IMG/VR virus record: IMGVR_UViG_3300049491_001100
Location: 1-55,857 of that record
From: a virus
Taxonomy: Duplodnaviria; Caudoviricetes
Direction: 5' to 3' (one strand)
Length of the DNA: 55,857 nucleotides
Shown here: in pieces, positions 4,441 through 37,579 of the stretch
Position numbering within the stretch: the stretch's first letter is position 1
How the letters are laid out: each line of letters starts with the position of its first letter
Position numbers and translations under genes: made by a program
Notes under the pieces: generated by a model
Seen by the model: only the letters and a program-made list of their open reading frames with translations
Database searches by the model: none
Told to the model about the DNA's origin: nothing

Positions 4441-4447
4441 TTCACCC

Positions 4448-4503
4448 GACCACCCCGTCAAGCCCGTCGCCTCCTCTCCCCTTGACGGGGTGGTCACTTT
4501 CTT
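4448..4503 (+). terminator. 15-bp perfect inverted repeat, probable terminator/attenuator
   Basis: GACCACCCCGTCAAG (4448-4462) / CTTGACGGGGTGGTC (4481-4495), followed by ACTTTCTT. Confidence 0.55.
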
Positions 4504-4505
4504 CC

Positions 4506-5132
4506 ATGCGAATCCTAACGCTAGATCTCTCAACTCACGCCGGCTACGCCATCATGGACGGGGAGCCCGGTACGAAGCCGCAGCTAGTCTTCCACGGCAC
4601 CATCGACATCGACAAGAGCTTGCACGAGTTTGGGAAGTACCCAGACTGCTACCGCAAGGCCGCACGACACATGGCGGCCCTCATCCATTTTAACGTCACC
4701 AACATCGACAAATTTGAGGTGATCGTGATCGAGGAGATCAACCTCGGTCGCAATCGCTATACACAGAAGCTGCTGGAGAACATCCACACGGCAATGCTCG
4801 ATCAGATCGAGAGCTTCTGGCCGCACGCCAAGGTGGTCTACCTCGACTCAAGCGAGTGGCGCCACAATCTCGGTCTGAAGATGACGAAGGAGCAGAAGAA
4901 GCTCAACGCCAAGCTGTCCAAGGCGAAGAAGCTAGCCGCTCAGACCAACATCAAGCTCGACAAGAAGAAGCTCGGCATCAAGGGCAAGGTCAACGCCAAG
5001 CACCTGGCAGTGGCCCATGCCAACACAATTTTTGGCTTGCAGTTGAAGATGAAGCAGAACGATGCCGCAGATGCGATCTGCATCGGTCTCGCCTTCTTCA
5101 ACGGCGCAACGCCATGCGATGGAGTTCAGTGA
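4506..5132 (+). CDS. RuvC-like Holliday junction resolvase
   Basis: MRILTLDLSTHAGYA N-terminus, IVIEE, EWR, C-terminal NDAADAICIG (RuvC-fold acidic residues). Confidence 0.8.
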   Translation: MRILTLDLSTHAGYAIMDGEPGTKPQLVFHGTIDIDKSLHEFGKYPDCYRKAARHMAALIHFNVTNIDKFEVIVIEEINLGRNRYTQKLLENIHTAMLDQIESFWPHAKVVYLDSSEWRHNLGLKMTKEQKKLNAKLSKAKKLAAQTNIKLDKKKLGIKGKVNAKHLAVAHANTIFGLQLKMKQNDAADAICIGLAFFNGATPCDGVQ

Positions 5133-7009
5133 TGGGTAAGGAATGGAGCACCCTGGCCAAGGTGGTGTTCAAGAGGACGTATGCACGCAAGCTCTTCCAA
5201 GGCACTTCGCTGGAGCGCCTGGAGAGCTACGCCGAGACCGTGGATCGCGCCATCATGGGCAACGTCCGCAATCACAATGTCAGTGATGCCGAGATTGCGC
5301 GTCTCAAGTACTTCATGAACGAGCGCAAGGCAGGCCCCGCCGGTCGTGGCCTCTGGTTCAGTGGCACCGAGGCCCACTACAAGATCGGGGGCGTCGCTCT
5401 CAACAACTGCTGGTTCGTTACCAGCGCCGACTGGCTCTCGTTCGCCATCGCCTGCGATCTCCTCATGCTCGGTGGCGGTGTCGGCATCAGCGTCGAACAC
5501 AAGTACACGTCGAAGCTACCCAAGATCAAGAAGGGCGTCGTCATCGCTCACAAGGGAACCAAGGATGCGGACTTCATTGTCCCCGACAGCCGCGAGGGCT
5601 GGTGCGAGCTGCTACGCCGTGTCCTGGAGGCGTTCTTCGTCACCGGCAAGGGGTTCACGTACTCGACGGTGTGTGTTCGTGGCTATGGTGAAGCCATCGC
5701 CGGCTTCGGTGGGACTGCCAGCGGCCCCATCCCCCTCATCGAGCTGATCACCAACCTCTGCGGCATCATCATCGCCCGCGAGGGCAAGGCCGTGCGTCCG
5801 ATCGACGCCGCCGACGTCCTCTGTGCCATCGGCGACATGGTTGTCGCTGGCAACGTCCGCCGTTCGGCTATCATCATCATCGGCGATGCCTACGACAAGG
5901 AATACCTGAAGGCAAAGCGCTGGGACCTGGGCACGCTGCCGAAGTACCGCAGCTCTGCCAACTGGTCCATCAACGTCGAGGACATCGAAGACGTCCACCC
6001 GACCTTCTGGAAAACGTACGAGCACGGCGAGCCCTTCGGCATCGTCAACATGACCAACATCCGCAAGTACGGTCGCATGGGCGAGCTGCGAAAGGACACG
6101 GCAGAAGGCGTCAATCCCTGCGGCGAGGCCACGCTGGAGCCCTACGAGCCATGCAACCTACAAGACATCGACCTCCCCAACCTCGACGGTGAGGCAGAGT
6201 TCTTCGAGGCCTGCCGCCTCATGCAGCGCTGGGGCAAGCGAGTCACGTTGGAGCGCTACCACATCCCGCAGGTGGCTGAGGTCATCGAGCGCAACCGCCG
6301 CATCGGGACCAGCATCACCGGCTGCTTGCAGTCGCCCCTGTTCAACCCCCACACGCTCGACCGCGCCTATGCCGAGATCCGCAAGGCCGACACCGAGTAC
6401 TCGAAGGAGTTGGGCATCAATGAGTCCATCCGCAACACGACACTGAAGCCATCGGGTACGAAGTCAAAGATGGACGATGTCGATGGTGAGGGCATCCACG
6501 CCGGCTACAGCCGCTACGCCATCCAGCGCGTTCGCTTCGCCTCAAACGACAAGCTGCTCCCAATTCTCCGGGAAGCTGGCCACCACATGGAGCCGGTCAT
6601 CAACCTGGACGGAACCCTCAACCACGGCACCCAGGTCGTCGATTTCTACAAGAAGGCCCCCGAGAACCTGCCCTGCGCCGACGAGGGCTTCGACACCTGG
6701 AAGCAGCTCGATGCCCTCGTTGTAGCTCAGCGTCACTGGAGCGACCAAGCCGTCTCCGTGACCGTTTACTACAAGCGTGAGGAGATCCCGCAGATCAAGG
6801 CTTGGCTGGGCCAGAACCTGAAGTCGCTGAAGTCTATCTCCTTCCTCTGTCACTCGGAGCACGGCTTCAAGCAGGCCCCGAAAGAAGCTATCTCTCGGGA
6901 AGAGTTCGAGAAGTTGAGCGCGAAGATCAAGCCCATCGACGTCGATGGCATCGGTGAGGGCGATCTCGACAGCCTCGAATGCGCTGGCGGGGTCTGTCCT
7001 GTCAAGTAG
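5132..7009 (+). CDS. nrdJ: class II (adenosylcobalamin-dependent) ribonucleotide reductase
   Basis: PAGRGLW, NNCWF, GGGVG, DSREGW, VVAGNVRRSA, NPCGE..LE..EPCNL, KPSGT, C-terminal CAGGVCPVK; start coupled by TGATG. Confidence 0.92.
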   Translation: MGKEWSTLAKVVFKRTYARKLFQGTSLERLESYAETVDRAIMGNVRNHNVSDAEIARLKYFMNERKAGPAGRGLWFSGTEAHYKIGGVALNNCWFVTSADWLSFAIACDLLMLGGGVGISVEHKYTSKLPKIKKGVVIAHKGTKDADFIVPDSREGWCELLRRVLEAFFVTGKGFTYSTVCVRGYGEAIAGFGGTASGPIPLIELITNLCGIIIAREGKAVRPIDAADVLCAIGDMVVAGNVRRSAIIIIGDAYDKEYLKAKRWDLGTLPKYRSSANWSINVEDIEDVHPTFWKTYEHGEPFGIVNMTNIRKYGRMGELRKDTAEGVNPCGEATLEPYEPCNLQDIDLPNLDGEAEFFEACRLMQRWGKRVTLERYHIPQVAEVIERNRRIGTSITGCLQSPLFNPHTLDRAYAEIRKADTEYSKELGINESIRNTTLKPSGTKSKMDDVDGEGIHAGYSRYAIQRVRFASNDKLLPILREAGHHMEPVINLDGTLNHGTQVVDFYKKAPENLPCADEGFDTWKQLDALVVAQRHWSDQAVSVTVYYKREEIPQIKAWLGQNLKSLKSISFLCHSEHGFKQAPKEAISREEFEKLSAKIKPIDVDGIGEGDLDSLECAGGVCPVK

Positions 7010-8633: not shown

Positions 8634-9758
8634 ATGGCGAAGGGCGACCGAGAGGCAAAGAAGGCTAATGAAAGGTCCGTGCTGGACTACCTCCAGCAGC
8701 GCGGCCTAGAGGACGAGACCAGAGTTCGCGTACGGCGCAACTCCGCTGCCACGGCTGCCGTGGGCAGGGAGGCATTGTTCTCGGACCAGCTCAAAGACGC
8801 CCTCTCGGAAGTCTTCACCGAGCGCGTGATCCCAAAGTTCAAGCCGGGCAAGTCCAAGGGGAAGACACAGAGGATCCTGAACGTGATCTTCTCCGACACC
8901 CACTACGGCAGCGACCTCGATCCGCGAGAGCTGGGGCACAAGTACGGGCCCGTCGAGGAGGCTCGCCGCACGGCAGCGGTCTGTCGTGAGGTGGCGCAGT
9001 ACAAGCTGCACTACCGAAGCGAGACCGAGCTGTACGTTCACATCCTGGGCGACATCATCCAGGGTCAGCTCCACGACCAGCGAGACGGCAAGCCGCTCGC
9101 CGAGCAGGCGTCAGCAGCAATCCGCATCTTCGTCAACGCCATCACCTACCTCGCTCAAGCATTCCCCAAGGGCGTGACCGTGCTCTGCACCCCAGGCAAT
9201 CACGGCCGCAACTCCGCTCGTCATCGTGAGCGCGCAGTCAATCAGAAGTGGGACAGCATCGAGACGATCATCTACACCGCCATCAAAGAGGCGGTTCGCA
9301 ATATCTCGAACGTCAAGGTACTCGTCGACTACCCGGCCGAGTACGAGTTCGAGTCCTTCGACAACGTGGGCTATGCAACCCACGGTGACACTCACTTCAA
9401 CCCGGGCTACCCCGGTAAGAATGTGGATGCCGGTGGCTTGAAGCGCCAGATGGACTCCAAAAACAATGCTCGCGTTCTCGCTGGCAAGAAGCCATACAGC
9501 CTCTTCATCGTGGGCCACGTCCACGTCGGGACTATGCTCCACCTCCCCGGCGGGGCAATCGCTCTCACGAACGGCTGTCTTCTGCCGCCAGACGCATATG
9601 CCAAGACCATCGGCATCGACACCACGTCCTGCGGTCAGTGGATGTGGGAGTCGGTCAAGGGCCACATCGTCGGAGACGCACGGTTCATCACCGTCGACTT
9701 CGACACCGACAAAGATGACTCCCTCGATGGGATCATCCAGCCCGTGCTGAGGTTGTAG
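8634..9758 (+). CDS. calcineurin-like metallophosphoesterase
   Basis: SDTHYG, GDIIQG, PGNHGR, THGD, GHVH motifs. Confidence 0.85.
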   Translation: MAKGDREAKKANERSVLDYLQQRGLEDETRVRVRRNSAATAAVGREALFSDQLKDALSEVFTERVIPKFKPGKSKGKTQRILNVIFSDTHYGSDLDPRELGHKYGPVEEARRTAAVCREVAQYKLHYRSETELYVHILGDIIQGQLHDQRDGKPLAEQASAAIRIFVNAITYLAQAFPKGVTVLCTPGNHGRNSARHRERAVNQKWDSIETIIYTAIKEAVRNISNVKVLVDYPAEYEFESFDNVGYATHGDTHFNPGYPGKNVDAGGLKRQMDSKNNARVLAGKKPYSLFIVGHVHVGTMLHLPGGAIALTNGCLLPPDAYAKTIGIDTTSCGQWMWESVKGHIVGDARFITVDFDTDKDDSLDGIIQPVLRL

Positions 9759-9794
9759 GCCAGCGCGCCCACGGGGCGCGCAGAAGACACAGGA

Positions 9795-13800: not shown

Positions 13801-14935
13801 CTTCCTCAAGCACTTTTACCCGCTGGAGTGGTGGACAGCCGTCCTCCGCAACGCGACCAAGGAAGAGATCAACGAGAGCTTCTGGCGCCACTGCGGACAC
13901 CTGATCAACCTCCCCGATGTGACCAGGGCCCACAACAACTTCGCCATCGTTGGTGATCGCATTCAGGCCCCGCTGTCACTGCTCCAGGGCGTGGGTGAGG
14001 TCGCCCACCAAGAGCTGGTTGCTGGCGCACCCTATACCAGCATGGCAGACCTCGTGGCCAAGATCGAGCAGAAGAAGATCGATGGCACGAGACCGGGCAA
14101 GGTCAAGAAGACGGTGAAGGAGAAGGACCCCAACACCGGAGAGGAGACCAAGAAGAGGGTTGAGGTCGATGGTACCATCAAGGGCCGCAGTGCCCTCAAT
14201 CGAGGTATCGTCTACAAGCTCATCATCTCCGGCGCCATGGACAAGCTCTTCGATGAGGAGTTGACCACGAACGAGATGTTGGCTGCGTACGAGAAGGCTT
14301 GCTTCGACTACGAGCAGGCAGCCCGCGTCCTCGCCGGCAAGAAGCCGTCGAAGAAGGCGGCCCCACCACCAGTCGACAAGCGCTTCACTGGCCTCAACCA
14401 GTACACGCGCTACCAGCTCCGCAAGGAGATCTTGCCCGCGTACAGCGAGTCCGTGTTGAAGTCGTTGGTCGAGCGCAAGCACGAGCGCATCTTCCTGGGT
14501 TCACGCGGCTACGTCTACAAGTGGAGCAAGGCCGTCTCCTTCGGCGATCCCGAAGCTATCGCCAGGCTGTCGGCCGTCGAGTTCTCGGAGAAGGGGCAGG
14601 GGATCCGCGTCGCCGTGGCCGCCTATGTCTCCGACGTTCGCATCTTCCGCTACGGCGACAAGAAGCAGTTCGCGGCCTGTGATCTCAGCGTGGACGTTGA
14701 CGGAGAACGCATGAAGTTTGTGCGCTGGCCGACCCGCGAAACCGATGAGGACGGAGAAGAGATCCAGTTCCTCGACCACCGCTTTACGCCGGAGCTGAAA
14801 GGGGCGCTGGTAATCCTCGTCCTCGGACGATTCAAGACAGGTCGCCAATTCAGCATCGACGACATCGAAGTTATTCAGCCGGCGTATGTAGCAAAGACCG
14901 AAGAAGAAACCGAAGCAGAGGAGAGCAAAGAATGA
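10850..14935 (+). CDS. dnaE: DNA polymerase III alpha subunit (family C)
   Basis: PHP motifs HCH, TDHG, GLEGY, DSHY; GRGSAAG; PDIDQD; SRHAC; KMDFL; YQEQ; YGFNKSHA; C-terminal OB-like region. Confidence 0.96.
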   Translation: MRNFATPHCHVQSLDSASTPQAFAERELELDTGVITVTDHGSLAACQAVYELAREKKLTPVLGLEGYFRDDNCPILLNQGVSRVNGKFDNFIKYHHFTTHFLDQAAFQVGVKLLSRAPIEKHGSESKPLFNWSDMEELGAANTTITTGCLIGMVQRFLLDKQSPELAIKYYERLRALVKPGNMYVEVFPHICSHNWVDGVFLTLKEGDGAEFKLRFYSGKTLKTNAGEIKASDLATEFNRKGNKHDTLLAVKDYHTWNDRTPATIVDVQEVVDEHGNKGAFIQNECRPFAPDGDVQLGANQFMLEMAQKYGDPILVSDDSHYAHPEEKIVQDVRLAQSGSWRFYGSYHRQSSAEAFEYFKNKLNVSEKQFEGWVENSHAWASRFKDFRLEAKPSLPTKFYEEKYAAVGATNSLEYTLHLIKKRGRFVEKPEYRARLNQEIKLLYANGVIDLLPYFFIDEEVCDLYTRNNMLTGPGRGSAAGLLLTYYLGITHVDPIRYGLSLDRFLTLDRIKSGKLPDIDQDLPSRDLLVGPDGKHGWLHERFGDHVAQISTVMTLRLRNAVLDVTRFTLGKVPPVVSDLTRKFLMPPQGLDDHKFVFGYEDSGAWVDGSIVHDTALQEYVRLYPNQWKIVQKCLGLGRGVSRHACAYVIANKPIVEMGIPLTKISDVTCTAFTASAVEAMGGLKMDFLVINSLNDIAAAIKMIQDRSGLTVPEDGTKVDGRWVPSVQLVPYKGKLVDIWDLPPAQEVFADIATSKTETVFQFNTHGAQQWLRNFAFKKDNGNYTIDSVDEMAAFTALDRPGPLDAAVTTPGQKRQEEWEKRKRRPSPWSDTITGGVGLSPGAPIPGFEPDRYEDEKDGKVHNMLVEYARRARGLAPSPDIFAVFDKLFPETHGVMVYQEQLQRLYQEVTGCSGAEAEEFRSNVAKKKKEKIIEAYPKFIEGGTKSMGSKAAAESVWQFIQSWAAYGFNKSHAVCYSVVGYACAFLKHFYPLEWWTAVLRNATKEEINESFWRHCGHLINLPDVTRAHNNFAIVGDRIQAPLSLLQGVGEVAHQELVAGAPYTSMADLVAKIEQKKIDGTRPGKVKKTVKEKDPNTGEETKKRVEVDGTIKGRSALNRGIVYKLIISGAMDKLFDEELTTNEMLAAYEKACFDYEQAARVLAGKKPSKKAAPPPVDKRFTGLNQYTRYQLRKEILPAYSESVLKSLVERKHERIFLGSRGYVYKWSKAVSFGDPEAIARLSAVEFSEKGQGIRVAVAAYVSDVRIFRYGDKKQFAACDLSVDVDGERMKFVRWPTRETDEDGEEIQFLDHRFTPELKGALVILVLGRFKTGRQFSIDDIEVIQPAYVAKTEEETEAEESKE

Positions 14936-15672
14936 CCACCCAGAATCTGGCAACACTGAGCACCGCCATCGAGAACGCCGCCGCCGTCGCCAACAAGCGA
15001 TTGGAGGACCTACCGTCGTCGGTTCAGGGCGGATGGGCCACCGCAATCGCCGAAGCCAAGACCAAGCTGAAGACGCTGAAGGGCGAGTACAAGAGCGCTT
15101 TGCTGCGCAATGGCGTAGCAATCTTGCTAGAGGGCGATGCCCTCAAGATCAGCGAGTTCGTCAAGCTGGTCCGAGACGAAGGAGAAGGCCTCGCAGTCGA
15201 TGCGGGCGCCCTCTACCGACGCCTCGCCGAGGGGGTCGAGCCCACGTTCTCTGACAGCCGACAGTGGGGTGTGCAACAGACGTACAAGCTCACGCTCGAA
15301 CTCAAGGACGTGATGGAAGGCATCGGTCTGACCGAGCTGCCGATGGTGGATCGCAAGGTGATGCCAGTCTTGCCGACGACAGAAGACGTCGCCAACCACA
15401 TCCGAACCATCGTTCGTGAGGTCGCAGGCGATGAGCTGAACCGACTCTACATCGAGGAGATGGCCCTCAAGGAAGCGTTCGAGATTCGCTATACAGGTAC
15501 TTTGGCTCCTGTGCTGATCTTGAACGCAAATGCAGATGAAGCCGCCAATCTGGCCAAGTCATTTACTCAGGGTACCACCAGGGTAACCCTCAAGGAGGAA
15601 GACGAGATCAACAAGAAGTTCTTGTACAACGCATTCAAAGAAGCAAACAAGTCAATTCGCACCAAGAAGTAA
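14932..15672 (+). CDS. hypothetical protein
   Basis: GAGGAG RBS, ATGA overlap with dnaE. Confidence 0.8.
   Translation: MTTQNLATLSTAIENAAAVANKRLEDLPSSVQGGWATAIAEAKTKLKTLKGEYKSALLRNGVAILLEGDALKISEFVKLVRDEGEGLAVDAGALYRRLAEGVEPTFSDSRQWGVQQTYKLTLELKDVMEGIGLTELPMVDRKVMPVLPTTEDVANHIRTIVREVAGDELNRLYIEEMALKEAFEIRYTGTLAPVLILNANADEAANLAKSFTQGTTRVTLKEEDEINKKFLYNAFKEANKSIRTKK
15483..15493 (+). promoter_or_regulatory. phage motif GATTCGCTATA (intragenic)
   Basis: Perfect copy about 230 nt upstream of the SSB gene. Confidence 0.6.
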
Positions 15673-15719
15673 ACGCTCATAGAGCATTCGACCAACTCGC
15701 CCAATTAGGAGACACGCAA

Positions 15720-16889
15720 ATGGCAAAGGGATTTGGCAAGGCAAACCTCGACAACACCTACGAAGGCTTCAAGTACTTCAAGCTCCGCACCCCCGACCAG
15801 CGCAAGGGCGAAGAGTCGACGGAGCTGGTCCTCCGACTGCTGCCGGCGATGCACTCGTACGAGGACACCAGCGACTGGAAGTTCTACTACGGGCAGCACT
15901 ACGGCTACTTCGGGAACAACCCCCGCAACCCCGAGAAGCCCCGCTCGCGCCCGTTCGGCTGCATCCAGAAGAAGAACAAGAACAAGGAGATCGTCATCTC
16001 CTGCCCGAAGTGCGTCGAGATCGAGGGCGTTCGCGCTCTCCAGAAGAAGCGCGAGCAAGAGGTCGAGGCGGCTCACCCCAGCGCCGGTGACAAGGAGCTG
16101 CGCGAGATCAAGCGCGCCGACGACAAGCTCGCAGCCCTCGGCAAGTGGCTCTCCAACCACAACTGCGACAAGAAGTTCTGGATCAACTGCATGAACATGC
16201 AGAACGAGTTCGGCGTCCTCCAGCTCTCCTACAAGACCACGCAGGAGATCTTGATCCCGCTCCTCAAGAAGCTGCGCGACGAGGAGAAGATCGACGCCTT
16301 CGACGCGACCGCAGGCGTCTGGCTCAAGTTCACCCGCACTGGCGTCCGCCCCAGCGTCACCGACCGCATCGAGGTCTTCACCGAGACCGTCGACATCGGC
16401 CAGGGCCGCAAGGCGAAGATCAACAAGGTGGCGCCGCTCACGGACGAGCTGATCGAGAAGGCGCTCAAGATCTGCCCCGATCTCAAGACCAGCGTCGTCA
16501 AGTTCATCCCCGTCGAGACCATCCAGGCTCTCGTCGACTGCTCCGGCGACCCCGATGAAGTCGATCGCATCTGGCCGCAGGAAGCCGCCAAGACCGCGAC
16601 TCCGGCGGCGGCTGCCACGACCACGGTCATCGAGACCAAGACCGTGGTGAAGGAGCCAGTGGGACTCAGCGCCACCGTCGATGACGACGAGGACGGCCCC
16701 GTGGACGACGAGGAAGTGACTTCGGCTCCGGCTCAGGCGGCTTCGACTGCGCTCACGGAGGAGGAGCAGTTGGAGGCGCAATTGGCCGCCATCCGCGCCA
16801 AGAAGGCCACGCAAGCGGCCCCGGCGGCATCCGCTGCCCCCGCAGGCGATCCGGCCGTCGACGACTTCCTCTCGAAGTTCTCGGCGTAG
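15720..16889 (+). CDS. single-stranded DNA-binding protein, T4 gp32-like
   Basis: LRLLP, Zn ligands (C..CPKC), FWINC, G.WLKFTRTG, acidic tail ending DDFLSKFSA; located between dnaE and recA. Confidence 0.8.
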   Translation: MAKGFGKANLDNTYEGFKYFKLRTPDQRKGEESTELVLRLLPAMHSYEDTSDWKFYYGQHYGYFGNNPRNPEKPRSRPFGCIQKKNKNKEIVISCPKCVEIEGVRALQKKREQEVEAAHPSAGDKELREIKRADDKLAALGKWLSNHNCDKKFWINCMNMQNEFGVLQLSYKTTQEILIPLLKKLRDEEKIDAFDATAGVWLKFTRTGVRPSVTDRIEVFTETVDIGQGRKAKINKVAPLTDELIEKALKICPDLKTSVVKFIPVETIQALVDCSGDPDEVDRIWPQEAAKTATPAAAATTTVIETKTVVKEPVGLSATVDDDEDGPVDDEEVTSAPAQAASTALTEEEQLEAQLAAIRAKKATQAAPAASAAPAGDPAVDDFLSKFSA

Positions 16890-16898
16890 TCCAGACCT

Positions 16899-16946
16899 AA
16901 GCAGTGAGGGCGGTTCACCCCGCCCTCACTGCTTTTCTTTTTTTTT
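16899..16946 (+). terminator. rho-independent terminator
   Basis: AAGCAGTGAGGGCGG-loop-CCGCCCTCACTGCTT followed by a long T run. Confidence 0.92.
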
Positions 16947-16956
16947 GGAGGATGTC

Positions 16957-17577
16957 ATGGCCGAGCTACTGCTGAGCGCTGACGCGCTCGTGGTTCCGTC
17001 GAGTACGGGAAGACCACACACTTTCGACATGCGCAAGATCCACAAGGCAGAGTCCCGCCTGGTGGAGATGAACGGCATCACCAAGGCCAAGGCGGGCGAA
17101 CTGCTCTACACCGTCATCGACGCCTTTGGCGACGCCAAGGACTACCACGCCACGCTCAAGGGCGAGTTCGGACGCTGCAAGCAGAAGCTCCGCAGCGTCA
17201 GGGGCGTGATCGTTCTCGACAAGGCACCAGACGAGCTGAAGGCCAAGGGGTTGTCAAGCGCCCGCTCACCCGCAGGCAGTGAAGACCTCCGCGACAGCGT
17301 CGTCAACACCAACACCGACTACATGTTCTGGGCAGACGTTCTGGCTCAGGTGGAGGTCGCCTCCGATCGCATGGAGGCGAAGGTAGAGAAGCTGAAGATG
17401 GCCTACTACGCCATCAGCGACCTCATCAAGGGGCCCGATGTCCGCCGCGACACCAGCGGTGGCGTTGGAGACGATGCCCCAGGCTCCCTCAGCCGATCCG
17501 AGCAGACACAGCAGTTCGTCGAGGAGCAGGCAACGAAGAAGAACTACCCGAAGGGATTCGGCGCAGCAAAGCTCTAA
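16957..17577 (+). CDS. UvsY-like recombination mediator (putative)
   Basis: GGAGG RBS; all-helical protein with EDLRDSVV..NTDY; position between SSB and RecA. Confidence 0.5.
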   Translation: MAELLLSADALVVPSSTGRPHTFDMRKIHKAESRLVEMNGITKAKAGELLYTVIDAFGDAKDYHATLKGEFGRCKQKLRSVRGVIVLDKAPDELKAKGLSSARSPAGSEDLRDSVVNTNTDYMFWADVLAQVEVASDRMEAKVEKLKMAYYAISDLIKGPDVRRDTSGGVGDDAPGSLSRSEQTQQFVEEQATKKNYPKGFGAAKL

Positions 17578-17591
17578 GAAGTCAACAACTA

Positions 17592-17602
17592 CATTCGCTA
17601 TA
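17592..17602 (+). promoter_or_regulatory. phage motif CATTCGCTATA
   Basis: Upstream of the recA RBS. Confidence 0.8.
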
Positions 17603-17624
17603 GCACAACTGAGGAGTACGCACA

Positions 17625-18734
17625 ATGGCCAACAAATGGATGCAGAAGCTTCAGAAGATGGAAGGCGTCGTCACGGAGCGCAAGGACCGCTTCGCGAAGA
17701 CCATCAACACCAACTCACCGTCCGTCAACTTCATCTTCGGGAAGAGCCACGGCCTCCCGCTCGGATACACCGCCGTCCTCTACGGACCCCCGAAGGGCGG
17801 CAAGTCGGTCCTCAGCCACATGATGGCGGGATGGCTCCACCAGAGCGATCCCGATGCCATCGTGGTCAAGTTCGACACTGAGTATCGACTCGACGGCCAG
17901 CTCGACGATGAGTCGATGCGGGTCTTCGGCATCGACACCGACCGCTTGCTCCCGATCATGACCAACAGCCCGATGACCATCTTCGACCAAATCGAGAAGG
18001 ACATCGCCGCCAACTGTCAGGCTGGGGCACCGATCAAGATGATCATCATCGACTCTGTCTCCGGCATCCAGGGCCGCCGCGAGATGCAGAACGAGTCTGT
18101 GGAGAAGCAGACCATCGGCGACCACGCCCAGACGATCCAGATCGGGCTCAAGCGCATCCTGCCCGTCATCCGCGAGCACGACATCGCTCTCGTCCTCATC
18201 GCTCAGGTCCGGGCCGAGATGGACAGCACCGAGCAGATGCGAGGCAACAAGTTCAAGATGAACGCCGGCTTCGGTCTCCAGCACATGGCCGAGTACTTTA
18301 TCATCGTCGAGCCCAACAGGAACGTGGCTGGCCGCAAGGACATGCTCGGGCGCGAGTTCGTGAACGAGGACGTCAAGGACTTGGCCGGCAAGGGCGAGTC
18401 CACGGCGATGAAGATCCGGGTCAAGATGAAGGACAGCTCCATGGGGCCCAAGGGGCGCATGGGCGAGTTCACCTTCGACTTCCACAAGGGCGTCACGAAC
18501 CAGTGGGAAGAGATCGTCCGCCTCGGCAAGGGCTACGGCATCATCGAGAACCCGAAGCAGGGCTACTACAGCTTCGGTGGCCAGACCTGGCACGGCGAGG
18601 AGAAGATGATCAAGGCCATCGCCGACGATGCCGCGCTCCAGAACGGGATCGTGGAAGAACTGCGGCGCCGAGACGCGGGCGGCGCCTTCGAGAAGTTCGA
18701 CAAGACCACCGACGAGGAGGTCAGCGCCGAATAG
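17625..18734 (+). CDS. recA: RecA/UvsX recombinase
   Basis: GLPLG..AVLYGPPKGGKS (Walker A), FDTE, IIIDSV, LIAQVR. Confidence 0.93.
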   Translation: MANKWMQKLQKMEGVVTERKDRFAKTINTNSPSVNFIFGKSHGLPLGYTAVLYGPPKGGKSVLSHMMAGWLHQSDPDAIVVKFDTEYRLDGQLDDESMRVFGIDTDRLLPIMTNSPMTIFDQIEKDIAANCQAGAPIKMIIIDSVSGIQGRREMQNESVEKQTIGDHAQTIQIGLKRILPVIREHDIALVLIAQVRAEMDSTEQMRGNKFKMNAGFGLQHMAEYFIIVEPNRNVAGRKDMLGREFVNEDVKDLAGKGESTAMKIRVKMKDSSMGPKGRMGEFTFDFHKGVTNQWEEIVRLGKGYGIIENPKQGYYSFGGQTWHGEEKMIKAIADDAALQNGIVEELRRRDAGGAFEKFDKTTDEEVSAE

Positions 18735-18741
18735 CTTTAAC

Positions 18742-18811
18742 CCGACCGGCCCAGCGCGCATAGAGGGCAGTCCCTTTGGGAAAGTGGATGCGATCTCCAC
18801 CGGTCGGCCCA
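18742..18811 (+). ncRNA. tRNA-like element / degenerate tRNA with encoded CCA
   Basis: 7-bp acceptor CCGACCG/CGGTCGG + C + CCA; T-arm GTGGA-TGCGATC-TCCAC; D-like GCCC/GGGC; anticodon arm reduced to TCCC-TTT-GGGA. Confidence 0.6.
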
Positions 18812-18820
18812 TTCGCTATG
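18810..18820 (+). promoter_or_regulatory. phage motif CATTCGCTATG
   Basis: Upstream of primase; overlaps the CCA of the tRNA-like element. Confidence 0.75.
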
Positions 18821-18826
18821 TAGAAG

Positions 18827-19858
18827 GTGCAGATGTACCACTTCAAGGGAGCAGATCCAGCAGTACTACTCCAGATCTTGAAGGAGTCGCGCCTCAAGTA
18901 CGATCAGACCTCGGTCTCGTACGTCTTCACATGCCCCAGGTGTCAGGGCAAGAAGAAGCTCTATATCCGCAAGGCAGACGGCCGCTTCGTTTGCTGGAAG
19001 TGTAAGGAGACGGAGTCGTACCAGGGTCGGCCAGAGTTTGCCCTCGCCGATCTCCTCAGTCAGCCCGTCAAGCAGGTTCAGTCGCGTCTGTATGGCGGCG
19101 AGCACATTCCTGTCAGTCTCTACCTCGACGTCAAAGTCAAGGACTTCTTCGGCGATGATGACGACGTAGACGACGACGCCGTCGAGATCGCTACCACGTT
19201 CTGGCCCCTGGAGTACCTGCCCATCGATCACGTCCACGCCGCCCGTGGCGCCGAGTACCTGCACGGACGCGGGATCCCGCTCTGGATGGCGAAGAAGTAC
19301 GACATCCGCTACTGCCCACAGAAGCGCCGAGTTGTGTTTCCTGTTAACTCTGGCCCGGCGCTGTATGGTTGGCAGGAGCGTATCGTCATCCCGAACAAGT
19401 TCATCGACGAAGACGGGAACGAGCGAGAAATCCCCAAGATCCTGTCATCGACCGGGATCCCCAGGGACAGGACGGTCATGTTCGCGGACAGGCTGCAAGG
19501 CGTCGACCACGCCATCCTGTGCGAGGGCCCCGTCGATGCCTTGAAGGCCCACTTCTGCAAGGGGAACGTGGCCGCCATGGGCAAGGCCGTGTCCAGGGAG
19601 CAGGTGCGCTTGCTCGTCAACGCCGGCATCAAGAAGCTCTACCTCGCCCTCGACCCAGACGCCGCCGATGAAATCCAGCGCCTGGTACGGAACAACTACG
19701 ACGACTTCGAGATGTACGAGATGATCGCGCCAGCTAAGACCGGTCGCGACAAGTACGACTTGGGGGCGATGGAGTTTGCGGAAGTGGACGACCTCTTTCG
19801 TTCAGCCGCCCGGATCGGACCCGGGCGGCTATTCATCCACCTCAGCTACAAGTACTAG
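18827..19858 (+). CDS. DNA primase (Zn finger + TOPRIM)
   Basis: CPRC...CWKC, YLHGRGI, RVVFP, LCEGPVDAL, LALDPDA; start GTG 18827 or ATG 18833. Confidence 0.88.
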   Translation: MQMYHFKGADPAVLLQILKESRLKYDQTSVSYVFTCPRCQGKKKLYIRKADGRFVCWKCKETESYQGRPEFALADLLSQPVKQVQSRLYGGEHIPVSLYLDVKVKDFFGDDDDVDDDAVEIATTFWPLEYLPIDHVHAARGAEYLHGRGIPLWMAKKYDIRYCPQKRRVVFPVNSGPALYGWQERIVIPNKFIDEDGNEREIPKILSSTGIPRDRTVMFADRLQGVDHAILCEGPVDALKAHFCKGNVAAMGKAVSREQVRLLVNAGIKKLYLALDPDAADEIQRLVRNNYDDFEMYEMIAPAKTGRDKYDLGAMEFAEVDDLFRSAARIGPGRLFIHLSYKY

Positions 19859-21387
19859 AGCCCGATCGAGCGCTTCCAGTTGTTGAAGGTGCCGACGCGG
19901 TGCTTGGCCGTCGAGACCGACAGCTTCTGTCCCTTGTGGGCACCGGACTTGACCTCGAAGTTCTCCATCACGAACTTGAGCAGCTTGGCCGGCGACGCCT
20001 CGCCATCCTCGAAGTACCAGGAGAAGAGGCTGAGTTCGCTGGAGCCGAGGACAGCCGCCCGGAACACGGCCTTCTCCTCATCGGAGCCTGGAGTGGTCTG
20101 AGCCAACTCCTGTCCCGTGGCCGTGACCACACCACCACCGACGAACCCGAGCATAACCGCAGCCCGCTGGTAGTAGCGGACCTGACGCTGGTCGACGCCC
20201 ATGGCCTCGATGAGTTCGGCCACGGTCGTGAGTCCATTCTTCATACCCGTGACCACGGCCCGAACCAGGTCGAGCTGGGCCGCCTGCGGGATGATGGCGG
20301 CGTCGAAGAGAACGGTCTTGACTTCCTTGGGGGTGCAGATGTCACACCCCTCCTGGTGTGTGCGCAGGCGTCGGTTGGCCTCCTTGCGGGCGCTGAAGTC
20401 GACGTTGGCGTTGGTGGTGGTGCTGGTGAGGATGTCCACCATCCGATCGTGCGGCATCGACTCCAGGAGTTGTCCCAGCTTTTCCGATGCCGAGGCCTTG
20501 CGAGCTGCCTGCGACGACAGGTCCAACTGGCAGTTCCTGGCGATGTAGTCGTAGTCGATCTCCTCGATCTCGTCCTCATCTTCGTTGAGCCGATCCATCT
20601 TGGCGACCAGGATGGACTCGGGATTGGGCGAAGATTCCAGGTCGGCACCGGGGTCGCTGAAGAGAGCCACTGCCACGGCCTCTTCGTTGGGGAGGACTGA
20701 CCGCTCCTGCTTCAGGAGCAGGGGCTGGAGGTCGCAGTGGAACCGCTGCTGGAGATAGCGGTAGAGCTTGCGCTCGTTGTCGAAGTGGGTCGGATTCGCG
20801 GTCTCGTAGCGGGTGCAGAAGTTCACGATCCAGCAGCGGGCGTACTGGAAGAGGTCGTTGATGTCGAGGCCGTTCCGCTTGCAGAGGTGATCGTTGAGGC
20901 GGAAGAAGCCCCAGGCCACGCGCTCCATCGTGGGCTTGTACTGGGCCCAGACGTGTGCGGGCGGGTTCACGGAGCGGCGGAACTCGGTGTGACGGATGGC
21001 GACGTCGAAGGCGTTGTCCCGGTAGTGGAGCTTGCGCGGGTTGCCCTTGTCGTTGGCCTCGGGCTCGGCGCCCCGGCTGATGGGTTGGAGGCGTTCGTAG
21101 CCCGCTGCGTCCGTGACCTTCCAGAAGCCCTCCAGGGCCTCGGAGAGCTTCTTGCCGGTCAGGACACCGGCCAGCACCTGGACATCGCCTGCGGGGTCCT
21201 GGGCTGCATCCAGAGCCACCTGGACCTGCATCAGGGTTCCGTCTTCCTTGGTCACGACCAAGTCGCACCCAGCAGCCTTTGAGGGCTGAACATCGATCCC
21301 CACCGCCCGCAGCCACGACCGCAGCGTGTTCACGGCGGTGCTGTTGCGTCCCTGAGCCGTGAATGGAGCCTTCTTCGCGTTGGACAT
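19855..21387 (-). CDS. putative phage sigma-factor-like transcription regulator (sigma2-like + HxxxCxxC + C-terminal winged helix)
   Basis: Start reassigned to ATG 21387 (GAGGAGG RBS; 510 aa); YKPTMERVAWGF...GLDINDLFQYA...TRYE resembles sigma region 2; HQEGCDIC; IPQA...RQVRYY..AA.MLGF...STAKHRVGTF..W resembles a DUF7226-type wHTH. Confidence 0.5.
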   Translation of the reverse strand: MSNAKKAPFTAQGRNSTAVNTLRSWLRAVGIDVQPSKAAGCDLVVTKEDGTLMQVQVALDAAQDPAGDVQVLAGVLTGKKLSEALEGFWKVTDAAGYERLQPISRGAEPEANDKGNPRKLHYRDNAFDVAIRHTEFRRSVNPPAHVWAQYKPTMERVAWGFFRLNDHLCKRNGLDINDLFQYARCWIVNFCTRYETANPTHFDNERKLYRYLQQRFHCDLQPLLLKQERSVLPNEEAVAVALFSDPGADLESSPNPESILVAKMDRLNEDEDEIEEIDYDYIARNCQLDLSSQAARKASASEKLGQLLESMPHDRMVDILTSTTTNANVDFSARKEANRRLRTHQEGCDICTPKEVKTVLFDAAIIPQAAQLDLVRAVVTGMKNGLTTVAELIEAMGVDQRQVRYYQRAAVMLGFVGGGVVTATGQELAQTTPGSDEEKAVFRAAVLGSSELSLFSWYFEDGEASPAKLLKFVMENFEVKSGAHKGQKLSVSTAKHRVGTFNNWKRSIGL

Positions 21388-21414
21388 GAATCCTCCTCGA
21401 TCCGGTGTGGATCC

Positions 21415-21425
21415 TATAGCGAATC
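21415..21425 (-). promoter_or_regulatory. phage motif GATTCGCTATA (minus strand)
   Basis: Only minus-strand copy seen; upstream of the sigma-like gene RBS. Confidence 0.8.
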
Positions 21426-21466
21426 TACAACAGCTTTCTGGAGCATATTTTGCCCCAGCAAGAGCC

Positions 21467-21495
21467 AGCGTACGCGAGATCGCTCGACCTGTCAA
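21467..21495 (-). promoter_or_regulatory. sigma70-type promoter for the sigma-like gene
   Basis: TTGACA-17 nt-TACGCT on the minus strand. Confidence 0.75.
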
Positions 21496-21545
21496 CAGGA
21501 TATGGCCATTCACGTACTTTCAGACACTTAGCTACAACAGTCGGA

Positions 21546-21556
21546 GATTCGCTATA
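21546..21556 (+). promoter_or_regulatory. phage motif GATTCGCTATA
   Basis: Upstream of the clpP-like gene. Confidence 0.8.
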
Positions 21557-21576
21557 TCCCGACGAGGACTTACTGC

Positions 21577-22188
21577 ATGACCATGCCGACCCCGGAACAG
21601 AATGTCATCAACAAGGTCGAGTCCTGCGTCTCCTTCGAGAAGCGGACGCTGTACGTTATGGGAGACGTCGACGACGATCTCGCCTACCAGGTCCAGGTGG
21701 CACTTGAGGCCCTGGACTCAACGGATGGCGACATCCGCATTGTCCTCAACAGCGAGGGCGGGGAAGAGCAGCCCGGGTACGCCATCTACGACGCCATCAC
21801 CATGTGCCGCAACAAGGTGATCATCGAAGCCTATGGCAGTGTCATGTCCATTGCCGCCGCCATCTTCCAGGCCGCTGATGTGAGGCGCATCTCCCCCAAC
21901 GCCGTCTTCATGATCCACAACGGCAGCGTCGATACCGAGGGCAACGTCCAGCAGGATGCCGTCCTGGACCTGGCGGAACAGATCAAGAAGGGCGCCCAGC
22001 GCTACTACGACATCCTCATGCGCGGCTCCGGCCAACCCCAAGACCTCATCGAGCAATGGTGTCGCGATGAGACCTTCTTCAGCGCTGATGAAACTGTGTC
22101 GGCGTGCTTTGCCGACGAAGTCATCAAGCCGGTCAAGGTCAAGGCACCGGTCAAGCTCAAGAAAAGAAAGAGAAAGGCTAACTCATGA
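21577..22188 (+). CDS. clpP: ClpP-like protease subunit
   Basis: NSEGG, AIYDAI, MSIAAAIF (catalytic Ser), FMIHN (His), ETFFSADE. Confidence 0.88.
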   Translation: MTMPTPEQNVINKVESCVSFEKRTLYVMGDVDDDLAYQVQVALEALDSTDGDIRIVLNSEGGEEQPGYAIYDAITMCRNKVIIEAYGSVMSIAAAIFQAADVRRISPNAVFMIHNGSVDTEGNVQQDAVLDLAEQIKKGAQRYYDILMRGSGQPQDLIEQWCRDETFFSADETVSACFADEVIKPVKVKAPVKLKKRKRKANS

Positions 22189-22823
22189 ACCCGTTCAAGA
22201 ACCTCGGCCCTAAGGCTCAGCAGTTGCTGGGCGACAACAAGCACTGGCTCTCACTCATCCTCATCGCTGTCGCCCTCTTCGGTGGCGGTATGGCAGTCGG
22301 CCGCTACACGCTCCCGGCCAAGGTCGTGACCACGGAGAAGGTCCACGAGGTCGTCAAGGATCGCATCGTAGAAGTGGTCAAGACCGAGGTCCGAGTCGTC
22401 GAGGTCAAGATCCACGACTCCAAGCAGGCAGAGAAGGTCCACCGCGTGACCGTGGAAGGGATCGATCCACCCGGCTGCAAGAGCAAGACCGTCACCGAGG
22501 ACATCAACATCGACACCGTCGTCCACGACAACACCAACACCAACTCGACCGAGATCAAGTACGTGGATCGCGTCGTCGAGAAGTGGCAGGATCGCATCGT
22601 GGAAAAGACCAAGACCGTGCTCAACCAGCCCAACTGGCGCGTGGCAGCAGGGGCTGGCGTGGCCATCCCCTACTTCCTAGGTCAGGGCAGCCCAGGCGTC
22701 CCCGGGCTCCAGGGCGCTGTCATCAACGTCGAAGCCGACCGCCGGATCATCGGCCCCTTCTGGCTCGGCATCCACGGCAACACCCAGGGCGTGGTCGGCC
22801 TCAACCTGTCGGGTGTGTTCTGA
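22185..22823 (+). CDS. membrane-anchored hypothetical protein
   Basis: N-terminal TM helix, V/E/K-rich repeats, beta-rich C-terminus ending in F. Confidence 0.7.
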   Translation: MNPFKNLGPKAQQLLGDNKHWLSLILIAVALFGGGMAVGRYTLPAKVVTTEKVHEVVKDRIVEVVKTEVRVVEVKIHDSKQAEKVHRVTVEGIDPPGCKSKTVTEDINIDTVVHDNTNTNSTEIKYVDRVVEKWQDRIVEKTKTVLNQPNWRVAAGAGVAIPYFLGQGSPGVPGLQGAVINVEADRRIIGPFWLGIHGNTQGVVGLNLSGVF

Positions 22824-35825: not shown

Positions 35826-36269
35826 GTGAAGGCTTGTACAAAATGCAGCGGCAAGAAGCCGCTGAAGGAGTTCAACAAAAGCTCCAAGGCCAAGGACGGG
35901 CGCAAGGCGCGTTGTCGATCGTGTCAACACGATGACTACATGGACGAGCGCCCAGCGGCATTCGCTCGCGCCGAGAAGTGGCGCCTGGCCAATCTCGACA
36001 AGGTGCGCATTCAACAAGACCGGTACAACCTCCGGGTGAAGTACGGAATCACCCCGGAGGAGTACGACCGGTTCATGGTGCAACAGAACGGCCGATGCGC
36101 TATCTGCGAGAAGCCTCCGACGAAACTTCGTCTGGATGTCGACCACGATCACGTGACCAAGAAAGTGCGCGGCCTGCTGCACAACCACTGCAATCGCGCC
36201 CTCGGCTATTTCGGAGACGATCCCGATGTCTTGGACAGCGCTGCCGCCTATCTACGGAGGAACAAGTGA
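35826..36269 (+). CDS. endonuclease VII-family (recombination/homing) endonuclease
   Basis: CTKC..CRSC, KYGIT.EEY, QNGRCAIC, VDHDH..VRGLL..CN.ALG; GTG 9 nt after the motif. Confidence 0.88.
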   Translation: MKACTKCSGKKPLKEFNKSSKAKDGRKARCRSCQHDDYMDERPAAFARAEKWRLANLDKVRIQQDRYNLRVKYGITPEEYDRFMVQQNGRCAICEKPPTKLRLDVDHDHVTKKVRGLLHNHCNRALGYFGDDPDVLDSAAAYLRRNK

Positions 36270-37579
36270 GCTACTACCGCGTCGGTGGCTGGGTGCGAGA
36301 CACGCTCTTGGGCTACGAACCTCACGATAATGATTTTGTCGTGGTCGGCAAGACCGTCGCCGAGTTCATGGCCGATTGGTCGGGCGACCACGACATCCAG
36401 GCCATCGGCAAGAGCTTCCCCGTTTTTCTGGTCAAGCACAAGAACGGTTGGCAAGGCGAGTTCGCCTTCGCGCGTCGCGAGCGCAAGACGGGCCCAGGCC
36501 ACAACGCCTTCGAGGTCGTGGCTGATCCCTCGGTGACGCTGGAGGAGGATCTGCTCCGACGCGACCTCACCATCAACGCCATCGCCCTGCCCCACGTTCA
36601 CCGCAACAACGTACCGCTGGAGACCCAGGTCATCGACCCCTTCGGCGGCGTCGCCGACATCAAGGCGGGTGTGCTCAGGCACGTCAGCGCTGCCTTCGCC
36701 GAGGACCCGCTGCGCGTGTATCGCCTCGCCCGATTCGCGGCGACGCTGGGCTTCAGCATCCACCCCGAGACGGCTCAGCTAGCCGGCTACCTCAGCTCCG
36801 AGCTGTACAGCCTCAGCGGGGAGCGCGTAGCCGAAGAGACTCGGAAGGCGATGTTGAGCAAGAACCCGCGCCGCTACTTCGAGGTGCTGCTGGACGTGTT
36901 CGCGCTGGAGCCATGGTTCCCGGAGCTGATCAAGCTCGTGGGCGTGCCAGCCGGCCCCTACGACTACCACGCCGAGCGCGATGCCTTCGAGCACACGATG
37001 ATGGTGCTGGATCGAGCGTGCTGGGTGCCGGAAGAGAACAGTCCCGACATCGACACCGAACTCGTGCGATGGGCCGCCCTCTCCCACGACCTGGGCAAGG
37101 GCATCACGCCCAAGGAAGAGCTGCCGCGACACCGCATGCACGAAGAGCGGGGCGTCTTCTTGGTGGAGAAGTTCTACGACCGCCTCAAGATGCCGACCCA
37201 CTTCAAGGACGCGGCTGTCCTCGCTTGCGCGGAGCACCTGAAGGTTCACAACTTCCTGGAGATGAAGAAGGGGAAGATGGTGGACATGATCCGCCGCGCC
37301 GACCGCACCAAGCTCAAGGCAGAGGGCCTGGCCGTCGTCAGCCTGTGCGACAGCCTGGGCCGCACCACCAAGGGCATCAAGGACACGTCTGGCCCAAGGG
37401 CTCTCCTGGCCTGTGCCGATGCCGCCCGCGAGGAGACCGGCCACCCCATCCCAGATTCGCTATCTGGAGCTGACATCGGCCTCTACATCCGCAACAGGAA
37501 GGGGACGGCAGTGCGCCGACTCCTCAAGGAGAAGGGGTTCATCGGCCAGGACAACGCCGTCAAGGTCAAGGAGAACTGA
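36266..37579 (+). CDS. cca: multifunctional CCA tRNA nucleotidyltransferase with HD phosphatase domain
   Basis: VGGWVRD.LLG...DNDFVV, FAFARRERK.G.G, EDLLRRDLTINA, EDPLRVYRLARF, HDLGKG. Confidence 0.93.
   Translation: MSYYRVGGWVRDTLLGYEPHDNDFVVVGKTVAEFMADWSGDHDIQAIGKSFPVFLVKHKNGWQGEFAFARRERKTGPGHNAFEVVADPSVTLEEDLLRRDLTINAIALPHVHRNNVPLETQVIDPFGGVADIKAGVLRHVSAAFAEDPLRVYRLARFAATLGFSIHPETAQLAGYLSSELYSLSGERVAEETRKAMLSKNPRRYFEVLLDVFALEPWFPELIKLVGVPAGPYDYHAERDAFEHTMMVLDRACWVPEENSPDIDTELVRWAALSHDLGKGITPKEELPRHRMHEERGVFLVEKFYDRLKMPTHFKDAAVLACAEHLKVHNFLEMKKGKMVDMIRRADRTKLKAEGLAVVSLCDSLGRTTKGIKDTSGPRALLACADAAREETGHPIPDSLSGADIGLYIRNRKGTAVRRLLKEKGFIGQDNAVKVKEN
37454..37464 (+). promoter_or_regulatory. phage motif GATTCGCTATC (intragenic)
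   Basis: Near the 3' end of cca. Confidence 0.55.

Follow-up and report, generated by a model that had tools for sequence, protein, structure and literature searches.

A candidate intercistronic RNA structure, perhaps of tRNA ancestry, in the recA-primase spacer of an uncultured Mx1-like phage

Repetitive extragenic palindromic (REP) elements in the malE-malF spacer of Escherichia coli are intercistronic stabilizer hairpins, and mascRNA/MEN-beta (RF01684) is a tRNA-like RNA with a reduced anticodon arm that RNase P cuts from a longer transcript. We compare these and other described systems with a 70-nt element at positions 18742-18811 of IMGVR_UViG_3300049491_001100, a 55,857-base phage record (the whole of which we call the window), where it lies between a recA/UvsX-like recombinase gene and a DNA primase gene. 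The further systems are the pseudo-tRNA genes of tRNA-rich large phages; intrinsic terminators, for which even the mycobacterial RNA polymerase requires a U-tract according to PMC3993855; and the substrates of RNase P. According to PMC11143913, RNase P cleaves model hairpin substrates made of an acceptor stem, T-stem and T-loop at the canonical site, with the 3' RCCA pairing to the GGU of the P15 loop, and the natural tRNA-like substrates found among its references are the turnip yellow mosaic virus (TYMV) tRNA-like structure, the transfer-messenger RNA (tmRNA) precursor, the precursor of the C4 RNA of phages P1 and P7, and the his operon mRNA. We lean, tentatively and with somewhat less than even confidence, toward a model in which the element is a lineage-specific intercistronic RNA structure at the recA/primase boundary, possibly tRNA-derived, that protects the recA mRNA. 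This model draws on the pairings of the element, its position, with the recA stop codon on one side and a promoter-like motif on the other, the lack of support from tRNA models, its absence from relatives and the inserts that other lineages carry at the same junction; the transcription of the element, its stabilizing role and its tRNA ancestry are what we infer.

The four helices can be read directly from the plus strand. A 7-bp acceptor-like stem closes the element, with its 5' strand CCGACCG at 18742-18748 paired to CGGTCGG at 18801-18807, and the 3' strand runs on through C18808 into an encoded CCA at 18809-18811. Inside this stem lie a D-like hairpin (18749-18768; GCCC 18749-18752 with GGGC 18765-18768), whose 12-nt loop AGCGCGCATAGA has no GG dinucleotide, an apex hairpin of 4 bp and a 3-nt loop (TCCC-TTT-GGGA, 18771-18781) that appears both in the cloverleaf and in the minimum free energy (MFE) fold, and a T-like hairpin (18784-18800) in which GTGGA (18784-18788) and TCCAC (18796-18800) flank the loop TGCGATC (18789-18795). 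The T-like hairpin abuts the 3' strand of the acceptor-like stem and is stacked directly on it, giving a coaxial acceptor/T stack of 12 bp capped by a 7-nt loop. All 20 base pairs of the four helices are perfect on this reading of the sequence, and every pairing described in the original prediction, which called the element a tRNA-mimic non-coding RNA, is indeed there. G18749 could also lengthen the closing stem to 8 bp, an extension that competes with the T-like stem. The recA gene (17625-18734, plus strand, 369 aa, Pfam RecA E=1.2e-11) ends with a TAG at 18732-18734, a 7-nt linker, CTTTAAC (18735-18741), follows, and the element then occupies all but 7 nt of the 76 nt that separate this stop codon from the promoter-like motif ATTCGCTAT. 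The primase gene (Toprim, plus strand) starts at GTG 18827 or ATG 18833, the latter being the start of the database protein P0003, and ends at 19858. The source phage is uncultured, Mx1-like and roughly 165 kb; the nearest named relative of the window is Myxococcus phage Mx1 (169,621 bp), with 44.5% identity in the RecA-like protein and 38.8% in the primase.

The element is no tRNA and is unable to decode. ARAGORN called 0 tRNA genes in the window by default and nothing near the element under relaxed thresholds (ps95, ps90 and ps80) or in the -mt and -mtx modes; at ps70 it returned only two opposite-strand artefacts. Rfam gave no match to the element at gathering score and none at E<=10 on the surrounding 251 nt (18650-18900), and its tRNA model RF00005, with a gathering score of 29 bits, found no match in the window at E<=10. 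A clade-specific tRNA covariance model built from 23 Mx1 tRNAs (R2), run on the window with filters off, scored the element at 10.6 bits (E=0.71), which is the level of noise: it ranked 3 of 26 hits at E<=10, below two coding-region matches of 14.4 and 11.1 bits, and the same model gives real tRNA-Leu genes of two relatives 42.1 bits (L118) and 41.0 bits (L115). Nine positions are invariant across the 23 Mx1 tRNAs (U8, G18, U33, G53, T54, T55, C56, A58 and C61). The element has G at position 8, no U33, and A53:T61 and G55 in place of G53:C61 and T55, although G57 fits. Because only T54, C56 and A58 of the nine are kept, the T-arm is not "intact" by the standard of a tRNA, as had been claimed, and a scan of the window for T-arms of strictly canonical form (a perfect 5-bp stem, G53:C61 and a TTCRANY loop) found none. 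In the place of the anticodon arm there is a 4-bp stem with a 3-nt loop, against the 5 bp and 7 nt of a tRNA. The label of a tRNA-mimic non-coding RNA is thus not supported. Two further tRNA-like families were compared. A tmRNA tRNA-like domain was rejected, as ARAGORN gives no tmRNA and pair 3:70 is G:C, not G3:U70; and the mascRNA family, unlike the window element, is eukaryotic, and its model does not hit the element at E<=10.

The apex hairpin also bears on the suggestion, made in the original prediction, that its TTT recalls tRNA-Lys(UUU) and that the element could serve to decoy or soak up PrrC- or PARIS-type anticodon nucleases. Nucleases of this type need a full anticodon stem-loop, with UUU at positions 34-36 of a 7-nt loop on a 5-bp stem. 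The window does encode an RNA ligase family protein (PF09414, 27367-28275) and an HD-domain CCA-adding enzyme (35978-37579), a gene set of tRNA-repair type that suggests conflict with host defences that target tRNAs, and this, together with the TTT, is what speaks for a decoy. However, the TTT is the whole loop, three nucleotides on a 4-bp stem, with no 7-nt anticodon loop, no U33 and no modified-wobble position, and neither tRNA-Lys nor any other tRNA is called by any tool. Because such a loop is unlike an anticodon stem-loop, the decoy is the weakest of the readings considered here, and we regard it as very improbable.

The 3' end of the element coincides with a motif that is strongly over-represented in the window. 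ATTCGCTAT occurs 18 times, against 0.11 expected, and none of 100 shuffles reaches 18. Seventeen of the 18 copies are on the plus strand upstream of genes; the sites of ATTCGCTAT(A) are at 1384, 3979, 7010, 10010, 10831, 15484, 17593, 18811, 21424 (minus strand), 21547, 24674, 26726, 29417, 31078, 35452, 35808, 37455 and 39092. The motif often abuts the preceding stop codon, TGA or TAG, with G at -1 in 15 of 18 copies and A or T at -2 in 17 of 18, and a start codon follows 8-30 nt 3' of the copies. At five copies the ATG lies 5-6 nt past the TATANN hexamer, a spacing that would be expected for leaderless mRNAs. The copy before primase, ATTCGCTATGTA at 18811-18822 on the plus strand, begins with the A of the encoded CCA. 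The letters of discriminator C and CCA are therefore present as originally described, and the overlap with the primase promoter motif holds; but since the A belongs to ATTCGCTAT, only "CC" is left unexplained. This CC is atypical of the motif, in that 1 of the 18 copies has C at -2 and 2 of them have C at -1, and the sequence upstream of the other 17 copies is not conserved. The 3' third of the element covers the -35 region of this promoter-like motif, and because the motif starts at the last base of the element, transcription would take in the element solely as the tail of a recA message.

To place this junction in its clade, relatives were collected through the primase. A total of 511 primase homologues were found, the best 40 were aligned, and the alignment used as query retrieved 80, 53 and 4 loci from three DNA collections; a single RecA or primase protein as query had retrieved no relatives from viral contigs. 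The recA and primase genes were placed by tblastn and the junctions extracted with automatic boundaries, which left one inconsistent value (-154, L014). All relatives compared at the DNA level are distant: RecA identity is at most 65% for all, and the closest, L090 and L091, have primases 58% and 57% identical; the primases P0004-P0009 are 75-62% identical, and their contigs lie outside the three collections. In 29 of the 45 distinct recA-primase junctions the spacer is at most 18 nt, and in Mx1 it is 3 nt. The window element occurs in 0 of these 45 relatives, so that its stems are not conserved across them, which is one half of what the original prediction had named as counting against it. 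Longer spacers are found in the other 16 junctions. Hairpins occur in those of L016, L020 and L090, with T-rich runs after the hairpin in L016 and L090, and L016 has the order hairpin, T-rich run, GCTATA motif, matching the hairpin-to-motif order of the window. The recA/primase junction is a variable boundary in this clade. One more spacer (L091:88-132) holds a near-consensus promoter, TTGACA-17-TAATAT, overlapping a 10-bp hairpin (GGCCCACGGC/GCCGTGGGCC), and the position of a GTG 7 nt past its -10 hexamer suggests that the L091 primase mRNA is leaderless.

Several lineages of the clade carry a tRNA or tRNA-like insert at or near this position. The clade is rich in tRNAs: 22 tRNA genes are reported for Mx1 in PMC10720576, and the Rfam tRNA model gives 27 hits above its cut-off in Mx1 and 2 below, clustered at 43-64 kb. 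A tRNA-Leu(CAA) stands directly upstream of primase in three relatives from one sub-lineage (L115:2388-2471, L111:1272-1355 and L118:870-955; Rfam 54.9 bits), ending 5-30 nt before the primase start, with a TAGCTATAAC motif upstream. In L090 the recA-primase spacer is 107 nt (2385-2491); a TTCGTTATAT motif follows the recA stop codon, and then comes a structure with a canonical T-arm, CGGGG-TTCGAAC-CCCCG, on an acceptor-like pairing of seven positions (5 Watson-Crick, 1 G-U, 1 mismatch). Its 62-nt tRNA-like core has a CCGG/CCGG hairpin and no anticodon arm, and is enclosed by an 11-bp outer stem followed by TTTCTTCTC; the fold has z=-2.21. The insert might represent a small RNA gene equipped with a promoter and a terminator of its own. 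R2 scores its T-arm at 11.8 bits (E=0.035), and the mascRNA model RF01684 scores the core at 16.8 bits (E=0.59), far under the gathering score of 42.5. The strict T-arm has 9 sites in 616,158 bp of the relatives' loci, both strands counted, of which 7 lie in tRNAs called by ARAGORN, 1 in L144 and 1 in the L090 insert. Because the strict T-arm is otherwise nearly confined to real tRNAs, the L090 insert is probably tRNA-derived. Such inserts lend indirect support to the earlier idea of a decaying tRNA, as do the tRNA-Leu(CAA) genes of L111, L115 and L118; what does not fit simple decay is that 20 of 20 pairs in the window element are perfect despite the loss of conserved bases.

Altogether, the element is a discrete insert, it fails the tRNA tests in everything except geometry, and its clade places tRNA inserts at this junction; for these reasons we favor, with the reserve stated above, a structured recA 3' tail. 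We envision that the element would be transcribed as the 3' untranslated tail of recA transcripts and that this tail would fold into a GC-rich branched structure or long hairpin closed by the 7-8-bp stem. As a cis-acting intercistronic stem-loop it would block 3'-to-5' exonucleases, so that an abundant recA message could outlast the read-through RNA downstream and be uncoupled from it in stability, while primase would be served by its own ATTCGCTAT promoter. The tRNA-like outline is then probably vestigial, the trace of a tRNA gene once inserted at the junction, or partly coincidental. The REP elements of malE-malF offer a functional parallel: there, too, a GC-rich stem-loop without a U-tract stands between a highly expressed gene and a less-needed downstream gene, and the action proposed for our element is likewise a 3' exonuclease block. 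Unlike REP, which is a repeat family of simple hairpins, the element is single-copy and branched. An intrinsic terminator would suit its position, which is that of the post-recA hairpins in L016, L020 and L090. However, the closing stem is split by 52 nt of internal structure and is followed by CCCATTCGC, and because there is no U-tract the element is not a canonical terminator; a terminator scan of 14500-22500 returned 5 sites, none of them at the element. Canonical terminators with a U-tract do occur in the window, at 16899-16934, followed by TTCTTTTTTT, and at 4441-4510.

Several observations weigh against a stabilizing recA tail, the missing U-tract among them. Both an RNA 3' end at the element and the stabilization of recA mRNA are things that we infer. 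The fold energy lies within the range of shuffled sequences, which is weak for a dedicated exonuclease barrier: the 70-mer has an MFE of -28.8 kcal/mol (z=-1.41, with 14 of 200 shuffles as stable), and the 98-nt spacer has z=-0.75. A plain stabilizer needs neither the 7/5/7/5 geometry of a tRNA nor a CC before the motif. A single-sequence covariance model of the element (R1), run over 80 sources and 430,797 bases, finds only the element itself, its runner-up (16.0 bits, E=0.79) falling within a primase gene. Finally, the case for tRNA ancestry is circumstantial and comes from inserts that cannot be aligned with the element: MAFFT of the window and L090 elements showed neither sequence nor structural homology, and the L090 insert lies downstream of its promoter-like motif, whereas the window element lies upstream. 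Other searches for homologues were likewise negative. An exact 17-mer of the T-like arm has 7 matches in the viral contig collection, none of them in a related context and all such as chance would produce; a blastn search of a phage database with the 98-nt spacer gave only a chance 19-mer (E=3); and the same spacer against the genome that holds L145 gave short matches at E>=0.03, a phage-contig match lying in apparent coding sequence and being unrelated. The possibility of a mobile-element scar with terminal inverted repeats was rejected, since R1 found no further copy.

Could the drawing be a relic without function, or a coincidence? A decayed tRNA gene, an insertion scar or GC-rich inverted repeats that merely permit a cloverleaf to be drawn would explain why the element is missing from 45 of 45 distinct relatives and has no homologue in the databases searched, why its thermodynamics fall inside the shuffle range and why its tRNA-model score is noise. 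The acceptor+T part of the structure also arises by chance. Dinucleotide shuffling of the window, both strands counted, yields on average 0.525 cases of a perfect 7-bp stem with a perfect 5/7/5 hairpin stacked directly on it, and 39.5% of 200 shuffles have one or more. The window itself has a second one at 53458-53517, inside a large minus-strand gene and without CCA, which we take as a chance match showing the base rate of the motif. Moreover, the element was picked post hoc out of a very large scan. The rest of the structure is rarer: NCCA is present on only 1 motif across the 200 shuffles, and two perfect interior hairpins in tRNA-like register occur in 1.0-1.5% of random interiors. Multiplying the acceptor+T rate, the intergenic share, the sense strand, the interior hairpins and the CC before the motif gives a combined chance of about 2e-5 per window (0.525 x 0.056 x 0.5 x 0.0125 x 0.1), an estimate that is itself post hoc, treats its factors as independent, takes 0.1 for the CC as an estimate from base composition instead of a computed value, and uses a null that ignores the hairpin-richness of spacers. 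Since a random-sequence null makes the complete set of four helices improbable, they are probably real and no chance product of such a sequence. Nor does neutral decay sit well with the pairings, since the loss of 6 of 9 invariant bases and of the anticodon arm should have broken pairs and 0 of 20 are broken. Phage genomes this dense, furthermore, rarely retain 76 nt of junk: the junction is at most 18 nt in most relatives, and intergenic DNA makes up about 5.6% of the window by rough gene calls. We consider a relic or coincidence unlikely.

A further comparison is with the degenerate or pseudo-tRNA genes of tRNA-rich large phages. As in those phages, the clade has many tRNAs as well as sub-threshold tRNA-like sequences (2 of 29 hits in Mx1 and 3 of 13 on the phage contig G001:C375), and the element keeps a cloverleaf-like topology with tRNA-like acceptor and T helix lengths. 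It differs from a pseudo-tRNA gene in its score of 10.6 bits, in lacking a proper anticodon arm and six of the nine invariant bases, in being remote from the tRNA clusters of its relatives, and in having no broken pair where a neutrally decayed gene would.

Perfect helices on degraded sequence look more like selection on structure than like neutral decay, and this raises the main rival possibility, that the element is a functional tRNA-like minihelix. RNase P would cut the recA-primase read-through 5' of C18742 and release a stable RNA of about 70 nt, the 3' end would be trimmed or repaired to CCA by the phage CCA-adding/HD enzyme, and the two cistrons would be punctuated in the style of tRNA, with only the processing features retained (the 12-bp stack, the 7-nt loop with T54/A58, and NCCA). 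Geometrically the element has what a minihelix substrate of RNase P or a CCA enzyme requires, namely a 12-bp stack, a 7-nt loop and a single-stranded 3' NCCA, with the caveats that the A of CCA is common to the promoter motif and that the discriminator is C. Such a shape would also be compatible with two readings in the original prediction, a tag for processing or stabilizing the recA mRNA and a substrate for the CCA enzyme of the phage. The exact 7+5-bp stack, 7-nt loop and CCCA match the minimal RNase P substrate, an acceptor-like stem on a T-like stem-loop with 3' CCA, in PMC11143913. The CC ahead of the motif, unusual for the motif, also speaks for this reading, as do the CCA-adding/HD enzyme and RNA ligase family protein of the window, the tRNA-Leu (L115/L118) or T-arm element (L090) that sits between promoter-like motif and primase in relatives, and a 48-nt acceptor and T-arm piece ending in GCCA in L144.

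Against it stand both the sequence and the fold. G53:C61 and U55 are lost and the D-like loop has no GG, and because these are missing it is doubtful that bacterial RNase P or CCA enzymes would find an elbow to recognize. Unlike the RNase P substrates in question, the element has a non-canonical T-loop (G55, A53:T61) and a discriminator C where "RCCA" has a purine, and it stands in the mRNA 3' tail of an uncultured phage. The cloverleaf (-27.6 kcal/mol) makes up 6.8% of the predicted ensemble and competes with a long irregular hairpin, the MFE structure, which has only the closing stem and the apex in common with it and pairs CGCAU of the D-like region with AUGCG of the T-like loop region. There is neither homologue nor covariation, the A of CCA is explained by the promoter motif, and the L144 pieces, which border a tRNA cluster, could be remnants of genes or belong to a tRNA with an intron. 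A processed minihelix at this locus is, in our judgement, an unlikely outcome.

The L144 pieces are two truncated tRNA-like sequences with canonical T-arms (5673-5713 and 5838-5889; R2 15.2 and 15.5 bits) at the edge of a tRNA cluster, the second being the 48-nt piece that ends in GCCA. The 3' acceptor strand of each can pair with a tRNA-like 5' half downstream, and relaxed ARAGORN draws a 148-nt intron-bearing tRNA-Ala(cgc) at 5742-5889; the pieces are perhaps tRNA debris, or else a tRNA in interrupted or permuted form. In the distant relatives L063, L064 and L069 a tRNA-Leu lies just downstream of primase.

A broader version of the minihelix idea would hold that Mx1-like large phages carry a new class of tRNA-like minihelix RNAs that have no anticodon arm and sit at the junctions around primase. 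Its members would stack the acceptor stem on the T-arm, keep the D hairpin in reduced form and encode their CCA, and the candidates are the window element, the 62-nt insert of L090 and the 48-nt piece of L144. Host RNase P would excise them, and the phage CCA-adding/HD enzyme would then complete or repair them. They would act as mRNA punctuation or as stable small RNAs, having arisen on repeated occasions from tRNA genes inserted at junctions. We find the existence of such a class distinctly doubtful.

The structure could instead act as DNA, as an operator for a regulator of the primase promoter or as a single-stranded hairpin signal for priming or replication. Read as DNA, the T-like hairpin is a 5-N7-5 inverted repeat (GTGGA-N7-TCCAC). 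Relative to the TATGTA hexamer in the promoter motif before primase it sits some 17-33 bp upstream, at the -35 region, and because the other 17 copies lack conserved upstream sequence, the primase promoter copy alone has a cluster of palindromes before it. The two strands are also about equally stable (-31.8 kcal/mol for minus and -32.6 for plus), as DNA palindromes would be. However, repeats of the half-sites were not noticed elsewhere in the window, R1 matches only the element, no regulator was identified, the cumulative GC skew does not point to an origin around 18.7 kb, and nested stems that tile 70 nt look more like RNA than like an operator. The chance of a DNA-level role seems to us slim.

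What the element would mean depends on which of these models is correct. If it is a stabilizer of the recA message, it is another lineage-specific intercistronic stem-loop, possibly a tRNA scar, and is of use mainly for annotating transcription units. If it is a processed tRNA-like RNA, large phages would reuse a tRNA architecture stripped of decoding as an RNA-processing signal tied to their own CCA enzyme, and the maturation of mRNA would be connected with the tRNA clusters and tRNA repair genes of phages. The by-products of the analysis likely outweigh the element itself: an over-represented promoter-like motif, putative leaderless mRNAs, and recurrent tRNA or tRNA-like inserts beside primase.

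The promoter-like motif has variants in the relatives, TTCGTTATAT in L090, GCTATA before primase in L016, L102 and L038, and TAGCTATAAC before the tRNA-Leu of L115 and L118. The 3' part of ATTCGCTAT (CTATAGGGAGA at 39092) resembles T7-type promoters; the Pfam family of T7-type RNA polymerases had no match in the window or in Mx1, and the control likewise gave no match. A second spacer hairpin without a U-tract, GCGCGCCC-ACG-GGGCGCGC, lies at 9759-9794 of the window, 3' of a gene at 8634-9758. A small open reading frame (ORF) drawn over the element (18628-19005) was rejected, as it overlaps both neighboring genes in other frames. At 0.91, the third-position GC of recA is exceeded by that of a single other ORF among those picked in the window. 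The record has a completeness estimate of 34% and a G+C content of about 60%, and contigs of one DNA sequencing run, which may be of the source sample, have the same sequence as the window with zero variants. Clade phage contigs of up to 156-164 kb (L143, L144 and L145) are binned in metagenome-assembled genomes labelled Saccharibacteria and Myxococcales; some of the contigs, at least, probably do not belong in those bins, and the Myxococcales label fits the kinship with Mx1.

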